Assembly: GCF_055900595.2 (NCBI RefSeq)
Contig: NZ_CM148325.1
Reading direction: 5' to 3' (one strand)
Length of the DNA: 64,000 nucleotides
The notes under the pieces were generated by a model. It made no database searches and was not told the DNA's origin. It saw nothing but the letters and a program-made list of their open reading frames with translations. Of the stretch, positions 57,504 through 57,694 are shown in pieces (the first letter of the stretch is position 1; the number at the start of each line of letters is the position of its first letter). A program made the translations under genes and the position numbers.

Positions 57504-57694
57504 TATTATTTAAATATATGGTGTAATCATTTGTATTCATAATATAAATGATTGCATCCTATTTTATTTGTTGAAACGCAAATGTAAGTGAGCGAAATCA
57601 CTGTGTTATAAATTTAAGATTATATTTAGTTTTCCTGGCGTGCCTTTCTGAATAATCTGGAATAGAATATTAGAGCTAATTTTAAGCATTATTA

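Follow-up and report, generated by a model that had tools for sequence, protein, structure and literature searches.

A conserved AT-rich yfgJ-sinH gap at the left edge of an Escherichia coli adhesin island and its putative activator-dependent promoter

The gene yeeJ is an inverse-autotransporter gene of Escherichia coli that is repressed by H-NS. Another gene of this protein family, sinH, is found in Salmonella enterica on the CS54 island, which Kingsley et al. reportedly described in 2003 as having the order xseA - shdA-ratB-ratA-sinI-sinH - yfgJ. The CS54 report (Kingsley et al., 2003) is cited in PMC4943183 and PMC3632133. Goh et al. (2019, PMC6714894) gave the SinH orthologue of E. coli SMS-3-5 the name iatB and noted that its place in the chromosome is conserved. 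The IatB protein was undetected under every culture condition tried, 12 of 12 up-mutants obtained in a Tn5 screen of an iatB::lacZ fusion were insertions driving leuO, no hns insertions were reported from this screen, and the iatB mRNA was raised by overexpression of LeuO, which is the only treatment known to raise sinH/iatB mRNA (PMC6714894). LeuO is a co-regulator or antagonist of H-NS with degenerate AT-rich sites (PMC6698644), and AT-rich DNA is preferred by H-NS (PMC1550270). In extraintestinal pathogenic E. coli, SinH/IatB contributes to fitness and is a vaccine antigen (PMC9937491). The sister inverse-autotransporter gene fdeC is H-NS-regulated, as stated in the title of Easton et al. 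(2014). Both fdeC and yeeJ resemble sinH in that they belong to the same protein family, are cryptic in culture and have AT-rich upstream regions; for fdeC, unlike for sinH, control by H-NS has been demonstrated experimentally.

As the locus, its position and the response of its promoter to LeuO have been published before, the present finding is an ordinary one, and an AT-rich gap in front of sinH is what would be expected of the promoter region of a known island, with nothing new in it. The modest gain of this analysis is a map of the conserved promoter, consisting of a hairpin, a block of 17-20 bp, a -10 element without a -35 element and a Shine-Dalgarno sequence, together with a candidate operator. 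The sinH gene analysed here is orthologous to iatB of SMS-3-5 and occupies the same conserved position, but iatB is a different allele, and the study of iatB (PMC6714894) mentions neither the conserved block nor the -10 element and reports no start site, operator or H-NS test.

The DNA analysed, referred to here as the window, is a 64,000-nucleotide segment of an E. coli chromosome, which carries on its + strand, in this order, bamB, der, a yfgJ-type gene, the AT-rich gap, sinH, sinI and the start of a ratA-like gene. Over 21.7 kb, the window differs at 3 positions from NZ_CP098223 (strain Z0117EC0005), to which a 701-bp probe spanning the AT-rich stretch at 57504-57694 is 100% identical. The probe found matches of at least 99% identity in 15 of 5426 complete E. 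coli genomes, and the same locus was present at 80-90% identity in a further 1667. The genes and the gap have the following coordinates:

55753-57225, + strand: der, ribosome-biogenesis GTPase, left-hand core gene (annotation of the near-identical NZ_CP098223)
57288-57503, + strand: yfgJ-type double zinc-ribbon gene, 71 aa (Pfam Zn_ribbon_6, E = 4.8e-30)
57504-57712, no strand: AT-rich yfgJ-sinH gap, 209 bp, 27.8% GC, left edge of the sinH-sinI-ratA island, containing 57504-57694
57713-59887, + strand: sinH (= iatB), intimin-like inverse autotransporter, 724 aa (PGAP name in matching genomes, conserved start codon)
59937-60935, + strand: sinI-like partner gene (annotated in ST131 as "SinI family autotransporter-associated protein")
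60947-60972: GC-rich hairpin and T-run after sinI, read from the sequence
61044-64000, + strand: 5' part of a ratA-like giant adhesin gene, which leaves the window (tblastn with the 8-kb adhesin of ST131)

The homologues of sinH carry PF11924 and are named SinH, and the ratA-like gene is 89% identical to the 8-kb adhesin of ST131 over residues 1-985 (tblastn). The gene content, i.e. sinH with its IAT beta-barrel, sinI and a ratA-like BIg21/InvE_AD adhesin, is that of a sinH/CS54-type island, and sinI and sinH probably form one operon. The right end of the stretch first described, 57694, is the base preceding the first ATG of the sinH open reading frame. This ATG at 57695 is not conserved, whereas the ATG at 57713 is the start common to all orthologues and is the one used by PGAP in the near-identical genome, and the true gap therefore extends from 57504 to 57712.

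In E. coli K-12, xseA and yfgJ converge, with a 4-nt overlap of their stop codons and no intervening DNA. The alignment of the window with K-12 shows that similarity ends right after the yfgJ stop (GCTTAAT), which places the junction at 57503/57504. The empty xseA/yfgJ junction of the K-12 type was found in 3668 of the 5426 complete E. coli genomes, and sinH was present at this site in 1686. In ST131, the island has the order yfgJ, sinH-sinI-8-kb adhesin, xseA and a length of 11.7 kb, with xseA following 53 nt past the adhesin gene; the corresponding right junction of the locus studied here lies outside the window. The comparison with ST131 further shows a clean replacement at the junctions, the island being replaced in K-12 by 5 nt (GCACC). 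With respect to marks of mobile islands, neither an integrase nor a tRNA is annotated at the junctions, and no direct repeats or target-site duplications were found in 57450-57760 or at the junction sequences. From the end of homology at the yfgJ stop and the counts of empty and occupied genomes, it follows that the gap is the left edge of the island. The preliminary description had placed an island boundary here because of the base composition; the boundary is borne out by comparative genomics (the end of K-12 homology, 3668 empty versus 1686 occupied genomes), not by composition.

The divergence from K-12 begins to the left of the insertion point. The window is 97-100% identical to K-12 as far as about 56050-56057 and 88-95% identical through the remainder of der; the value drops to about 51% across the spacer between der and yfgJ and in the 5' half of yfgJ, and rises again to about 77-88% in the 3' half. 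The 3' two-thirds of der thus belong to a divergent haplotype that is linked to the island and extends to the left of the insertion point. The island is the E. coli counterpart of the one at the Salmonella CS54 xseA-yfgJ site; both lie directly downstream of yfgJ and have the order sinH-sinI-ratA in common. The CS54 promoter core is also of the same type, with TTTTTAGGAATATATTTAGG, a spacing of 33 nt and a TATAAT beginning 49 nt before the ATG. The two islands differ in that the E. coli island (11.7 kb in ST131) is without ratB and shdA, Salmonella SinH is only about 73% identical to E. coli SinH, and a GC-rich REP-like element follows yfgJ in Salmonella where E. coli has an AT-rich hairpin.

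For a comparison of the gap itself, a first set of 14 orthologous loci was collected, comprising the window, three further E. coli alleles, E. whittamii, E. albertii, two more Escherichia species, Pseudocitrobacter (3), Superficieibacter (2) and Citrobacter sp. MGH106. Loci of Salmonella enterica, its subsp. salamae and C. freundii were used later as test loci, resulting in 17 loci from five genera. At every orthologous locus collected, sinH lies directly downstream of yfgJ; this adjacency extends to Pseudocitrobacter, Superficieibacter and several Escherichia species, and the order yfgJ-sinH-sinI-ratA is also found in Salmonella and Citrobacter. The gap has a length of 200-218 bp and a GC content of 22-30% in Escherichia, Citrobacter, Pseudocitrobacter and Superficieibacter, and of 333-345 bp and 31-34% in Salmonella, where it is longer because of the REP-like element. 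Its sequence is mostly unalignable between genera, and the window gap has only about 61-69% identity to those of other E. coli alleles. Compared with ST131, the gap is 69% identical, while the third codon positions of sinH are 77% and the SinH proteins 95% identical. Outside the conserved elements, the gap therefore evolves no more slowly than synonymous sites. The elements recognised in the gap are as follows:

57520-57558, + strand: long AT-rich hairpin with 18 pairs and a 3-nt loop, candidate terminator or 3'-end stabiliser (terminator scan)
57613-57629, + strand: block 1, TTTAAGATTATATTTAG, 17-20 bp, invariant alignment columns, candidate site of a dimeric activator
57663-57668, + strand: -10-like hexamer TAGAAT, as TAnAAT in 16 of 17 orthologues and as TAAACT in one
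57674-57677, + strand: predicted sinH transcription start, from the position of the -10 hexamer alone
57702-57707, + strand: Shine-Dalgarno sequence AGGGGA, 5 nt before the sinH ATG

Nearest to yfgJ, the hairpin is followed by a U-rich run, UAUUUUAUUU, at 57560-57572, 2 nt past the stem. The RNA of 57494-57583 folds with -23.6 kcal/mol (z = -5.2), and none of 200 shuffled sequences was as stable. A hairpin of different sequence was found at the same place in six of the seven other orthologues folded (z from -2.0 to -6.1), namely ST131, three other Escherichia alleles, C. freundii and P. faecalis; in E. albertii, the fold gave no significant hairpin at this place. The hairpin and the U-run probably end or stabilise the der-yfgJ transcript. 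The stem contains only 3 G-C pairs and the U-run is absent in ST131, and owing to this low G+C content and inconsistent U-run the role as a terminator is put forward as a prediction. A scan of 56500-58500 against Rfam gave no match, with only sub-threshold noise such as miRNA models.

Block 1 has the consensus tTTTTA(A/G)GAaT(a/t)(t/c)ATTTAG(g), in which two TTTAG-like hexamers lie 11-12 bp apart. It is present in all 17 orthologous gaps, where it supplies most of the invariant alignment columns, and occurs once per locus and only once in the 64-kb window. From its ATTTAG to the -10-like hexamer the distance is 39-40 nt in 15 of the 17 loci; the exceptions, at 48 and 51 nt, are Escherichia sp. 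MOD1-EC7003 and Superficieibacter 1612, and they belong to one divergent allele class. The features had been defined on the 14 loci of the first set and recurred in all three test loci (Salmonella enterica, subsp. salamae and C. freundii), which have the block, a spacing of 39 nt and a TATAAT 47-49 nt before the ATG. In a k-mer presence test taken alone, block 1 was only marginally above shuffled sequences. This test is weak since the DNA is so AT-rich, and the case for block 1 is built on its fixed position and spacing.

The -10-like hexamer occurs in the orthologues also as TATAAT, TACAAT and TAAAAT, and variation at the third position is as expected for a sigma-70 -10 element; the TAGAAT at 57663-57668 has the A2 and T6 that characterise this element. 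No -35 hexamer was found 16-18 bp upstream of TAGAAT, where GTGCCT matches in 3 of 6 positions and is not conserved, and a consensus promoter scan gave no two-hexamer promoter on the + strand of the window, ST131 and Salmonella gaps. With the hexamer at -12 to -7, transcription would start near 57675, resulting in a 5' UTR of about 38 nt and a position of block 1 at about -64 to -45. In most orthologues, an (A)CAGGGA/CAGGAA motif precedes the start codon. Taken together, this architecture appears to be that of a weak, activator-dependent promoter for sinH. A conserved TAnAAT without a usable -35 should have low basal activity, and the lack of a canonical promoter fits the published report that IatB/SinH is undetectable in culture. 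The preliminary description had seen in this stretch a probable regulatory region, a reading supported by the TAnAAT, block 1 at its fixed spacing and the Shine-Dalgarno sequence in 17 loci of five genera.

Our reading of the whole is therefore that of an island-edge gap with a 3' hairpin for der-yfgJ and an activator-dependent promoter for sinH, which is likely to be a substrate of H-NS, and we regard this combination as reasonably probable. In the left third of the gap, the hairpin and U-run would terminate or stabilise the der-yfgJ transcript. The right two-thirds would be the promoter of sinH, or of sinH-sinI, with its TAnAAT, missing -35 and low basal activity, followed by a short 5' UTR with the Shine-Dalgarno sequence. 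Block 1, at about -64 to -45, could be the contact point of a dimeric activator or of the alpha subunit of RNA polymerase. The remainder of the gap varies freely in sequence but keeps an A+T content of about 75%, which makes it a likely H-NS substrate, and the activation of the orthologous iatB promoter by LeuO would most simply be a relief of H-NS silencing.

The base composition of the gap is indeed extreme. The AT-rich stretch at 57504-57694 (191 bp) has a GC content of 25.1%, compared with 52.5% for the whole window, and this value of 0.251 is the minimum of all 191-bp windows in the 64 kb, reached by only 8 of 63,810 of them (mean 0.524, sd 0.049, z = -5.6); the next-deepest troughs have 30.4% and 34.0%. 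The AT-richness claimed for this stretch was thus confirmed, and the A/T runs quoted for it match the sequence of the window. In the neighbourhood, ten other intergenic gaps between core genes have 36-54% GC as opposed to 27.8% in the yfgJ-sinH gap, and TpA steps number 12.9 per 100 nt in the gap and 4.2 window-wide. The A+T content of the promoter, 72-75%, is well above the average of 47.5%, as in H-NS-silenced promoters. A high-affinity nucleation consensus for H-NS, which Lang et al. are said to have given in 2007, is TCGATAAATT; such a motif supports H-NS silencing but does not strictly define it. It has no match at up to 2 mismatches, and at up to 3 mismatches there were 4 matches compared with 5.0 +/- 2.2 in shuffled sequences, i.e. 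no enrichment. Since the AT-rich tract is about 200 bp long and flanked by DNA of about 50% GC, any H-NS patch would be short. The accessible literature and its supplements contained no H-NS occupancy or hns-mutant data on the sinH/STM2517 locus. Silencing of the sinH promoter by H-NS is plausible on indirect grounds, namely the AT content, the silence of the orthologous iatB promoter in culture and its response to LeuO, the antagonism between LeuO and H-NS and the precedent of fdeC.

The same low GC content might instead be a by-product, if the gap were a nearly unconstrained spacer that has drifted under the bacterial GC-to-AT mutation bias, in which the short promoter elements alone are functional, H-NS plays no significant part and LeuO is an ordinary or indirect activator. 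This would account for a divergence outside the blocks that is at least that of synonymous sites (69% versus 77% identity) and for the failure to align across genera, and it would also agree with the absent nucleation motif and a published screen that reported no hns hits. However, nearby gaps have 36-54% GC, and a GC content of 22-30% and a length of 200-218 bp have been kept in four genera of differing genome GC (Salmonella is longer, with 31-34%), which looks like selection on composition and length. In addition, the known action of LeuO is antagonism of H-NS (PMC6698644). We therefore consider such passive drift unlikely.

Several known binding sites were compared with the gap and rejected. 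A CRP site (TGTGA-N6-TCACA) is approached by GTGA-N6-TCAC at 57588-57601 in the window allele only, as it is degraded in ST131 and absent elsewhere. For Lrp, PhoP, PmrA, CpxR, Fis, IHF, Fur and sigma-54 sites, a comparison by eye with the consensus sequences gave no likeness above chance in AT-rich DNA. Of the RcsB homodimer box, block 1 has a single half, which is TAAGA in the window and TAGGA in most orthologues; in place of the second half it has ATTTA. The RcsAB box, TaAGaatatTCctA (PMC3950696), was matched by eye in 10 of 14 positions in the window and in 11-12 of 14 in Salmonella, depending on the strand, with the TC of one half reading TT. The GAD box bound by RcsB-GadE, TTAGGATTTTGTTATTTAAA, is located 16 bp upstream of a -35; in block 1 the halves are 3 nt closer together and the identity is 10/20.

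The described sites most similar to block 1 are nevertheless the GAD box and the BglJ-RcsB sites (PMC2887963, PMC3950696), which are likewise about 20 bp long and asymmetric, have a TTAGGA/TTCCTA half, are located at about -50 to -76 and belong to weak, H-NS-repressed promoters. The likeness concerns the half-site alone, as the halves are spaced differently and the second one has another sequence, and block 1 is a candidate site known from its sequence. As a tentative proposal, the sequence tTTTTA(A/G)GAaTwyATTTAG(g) may be the operator of a dedicated dimeric activator, perhaps a heterodimer of RcsB and a partner, and could serve as the switch that turns on SinH in the host, SinH being a protein that is not seen in culture but is induced in urinary infection.

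The more specific version, in which block 1 would bind an RcsB-family (FixJ/NarL-type) heterodimer of RcsB and an auxiliary partner as its operator and act as a class-I-type activator site in an H-NS-repressed promoter, draws on several resemblances. The TA(A/G)GAAT of block 1 corresponds to the left half, TaAGaa, of the RcsAB box (in which tatTCctA follows) and, read as its complement, to the BglJ-RcsB core wwTTCykA (PMC3950696). The GAD box of K-12 gadA has TTAGGA and ATTTA in common with block 1, its footprint by the RcsB-GadE heterodimer extends from -50 to -76, and its left half resembles the RcsB half-site (PMC2887963). The centres of BglJ-RcsB sites lie between -52 and -79, and these sites require the right helical phasing (PMC3950696); the variant of Superficieibacter with a spacing longer by 11 nt preserves the helical phase. 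On the other hand, only one half of the homodimer box TN(G/A)GAN4TC(T/C)NA (PMC7913699) is recognisable, block 1 has TT where the right half of the RcsAB box has a conserved TC, the GAD-box halves lie 3 nt closer together there with an ungapped identity of 10/20, and the half-site of the window, TAAGATT, has one mismatch. The published iatB screen yielded leuO only, and readings as Lrp-, PmrA- or PhoP-like sites fit about equally poorly. A literature search returned no paper linking sinH to RcsB. GadE, BglJ and MatA are not known to be common to all five genera. In sum, we regard an RcsB heterodimer as a lead of low probability and do not classify block 1 as its site.

That block 1 instead serves a leftward promoter, as the minus-strand -10 of a short antisense or non-coding RNA ending at the hairpin, is hardly credible: in the window, its reverse complement does contain a TATAAT (57624 to 57619) that is preceded by AAGGCA 17 nt upstream, an equivalent minus-strand site was given by the scan in ST131 (AAGACA-16-TATATT) and the symmetric hairpin would also fold in a leftward transcript, but the minus-strand TAnnnT is missing in about 4-5 of the 17 orthologues, the invariant G residues and the TTT run would be left unexplained, promoter-like matches are no commoner than in shuffled sequences, and the Rfam scan gave no match.

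There remains the relation of the low GC content to the origin of the island. In bins of 200 bp, the GC content is 0.475 at 57300-57499, drops to 0.25 at 57500-57699 and has returned to 0.45-0.50 by 57700-57999. The island genes have GC contents of 48.9% (sinH), 51.9% (sinI) and 56.0% (ratA-like) with a GC3 of 53-62%, compared with 51.7% and 52.9% for the core genes der and bamB. As the island genes are GC-balanced and the GC content is back at 45-50% within 200 bp, the gap forms a narrow trough and not a step. A sliding GC window, which had been suggested as a check, thus confirms the compositional break, but not a step into AT-rich island DNA, since the island genes have 49-56% GC. Across the orthologous loci, the coding GC of sinH is host-like (47-55%) and tracks the host, and together with the gene order shared across genera this indicates an old locus with genes of normal composition. 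The SinH of Pseudocitrobacter vendiensis is 93% identical to that of the window and so nearer to it than alleles of 85-87% identity that occur in Escherichia. Allele exchange between genera appears to be real; it would fit homologous replacement via the flanking core genes and not a recent import of AT-rich DNA.

A leftover foreign-DNA signature of a recently acquired island is accordingly a highly improbable explanation of the AT-rich stretch, for although the stretch sits at a presence/absence boundary and alleles are exchanged between genera (93% for P. vendiensis SinH versus alleles of 85-87% in Escherichia), the idea is largely refuted by island coding DNA of 49-56% GC and a GC3 of 53-62%, the same gene order in other genera and a sinH GC that follows the host speak for an old locus, and the junctions are without integrase, tRNA or direct repeats. 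The claim of the preliminary description that the AT-richness is typical of horizontally acquired DNA could not be upheld: the island DNA is not lower in GC than the core genome, its genes are GC-balanced to GC-rich, and the AT-rich part is the 209-bp gap only and recurs in every genus. The low GC content is a property conserved in one intergenic promoter region and not a mark of the island. For compositional scans this is a caution, as a trough at the edge of an island need not be a signature of "alien DNA".

As a minor observation, the minus strand of the gap contains small open reading frames of 24 and 31 aa.

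The alleles of sinH, the inverse autotransporter gene, are out of step with species (loci L010, L011 and L012). SinH of Pseudocitrobacter vendiensis (L010) is 93% identical to that of the window, with Der at 92%, and several Escherichia SinH alleles are only 85-87% identical to the window's. Escherichia sp. MOD1-EC7003 and Superficieibacter have in common a 71% allele class and an unusual promoter spacing, which is the distance from block 1 to the -10 hexamer. This distribution of alleles suggests that the sinH locus has been exchanged between genera.

Compared with the K-12 locus (L002), the island-linked haplotype of the window reaches into the core genes to the left of the island (56050-57400). 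From about position 56057, which lies within der, identity to K-12 falls from 97-100% to 88-95%, and across the der-yfgJ spacer together with the 5' half of yfgJ it amounts to approximately 51%. Within yfgJ, the 3' half, which adjoins the island, is more similar to K-12 than the 5' half, with an identity of approximately 77-88%. At the protein level, the YfgJ sequences of the window and K-12 are 68% identical; the C-terminal zinc ribbon is common to both, while the N-terminal one differs.

The der-yfgJ spacer was recognised as a second variable spot (loci L007, L015, L014 and L026), in which the following genes were found:
E. albertii, L007 1-3575, der-yfgJ spacer: CBASS-like pair of a CD-NTase with SMODS/AGS_C domains and a Cap15-type effector
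E. albertii, L007 1-3575, immediately 5' of yfgJ: AlpA-family regulator gene
E. coli E69, L015, der-yfgJ spacer: AlpA-like gene
C. freundii, L026, der-yfgJ interval: MFS/PTR2 transporter and GFO/IDH/MocA oxidoreductase
Citrobacter sp. MGH106 (L014) has a gap of about 3 kb at this place that is similar to the one in C. freundii L026.

The yfgJ-sinH gap is longer in Salmonella because a palindromic, REP-like element rich in GC (…GCCGACGTTGCGCC…GGCGCCGACGTCTTATCCGGC…; L024 3656-3780, L025 3668-3780) replaces the AT-rich hairpin 3' of yfgJ. In the window, the two ends of this gap (57485-57508 and 57677-57700) are 75% complementary over 24 nt and make up an inverted repeat with 168 nt between its arms, which is not obviously retained in ST131 and is probably a product of chance in AT-rich DNA.

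Two hairpins were located downstream of sinI and the adhesin gene:
Window 60947-60972, directly 3' of sinI: GC-rich hairpin GCATTCCC-TTAC-GGGAATGC, followed by TGTTTT
ST131, L003 27908-27937: the adhesin gene's own terminator hairpin, which overlaps the stop codon of xseA, a convergent gene
The former is likely a terminator that divides sinH-sinI from the ratA-like gene.

NZ_CP098223, a genome otherwise nearly identical to the window, carries an internal deletion (L001 20464-23816) that joins a 5' segment of sinH to a 3' segment of the giant adhesin gene, both of which are annotated as pseudogenes; the window source is therefore a close relative with an intact island. Furthermore, SinH fragments that are 92-99% identical to the window's occur on short contigs of a 'Collinsella sp.' MAG (L009) and of 'Rhizobium wenxiniae' (L018), most likely because these assemblies, which are of unrelated organisms, contain contaminating or mis-binned E. 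coli DNA.
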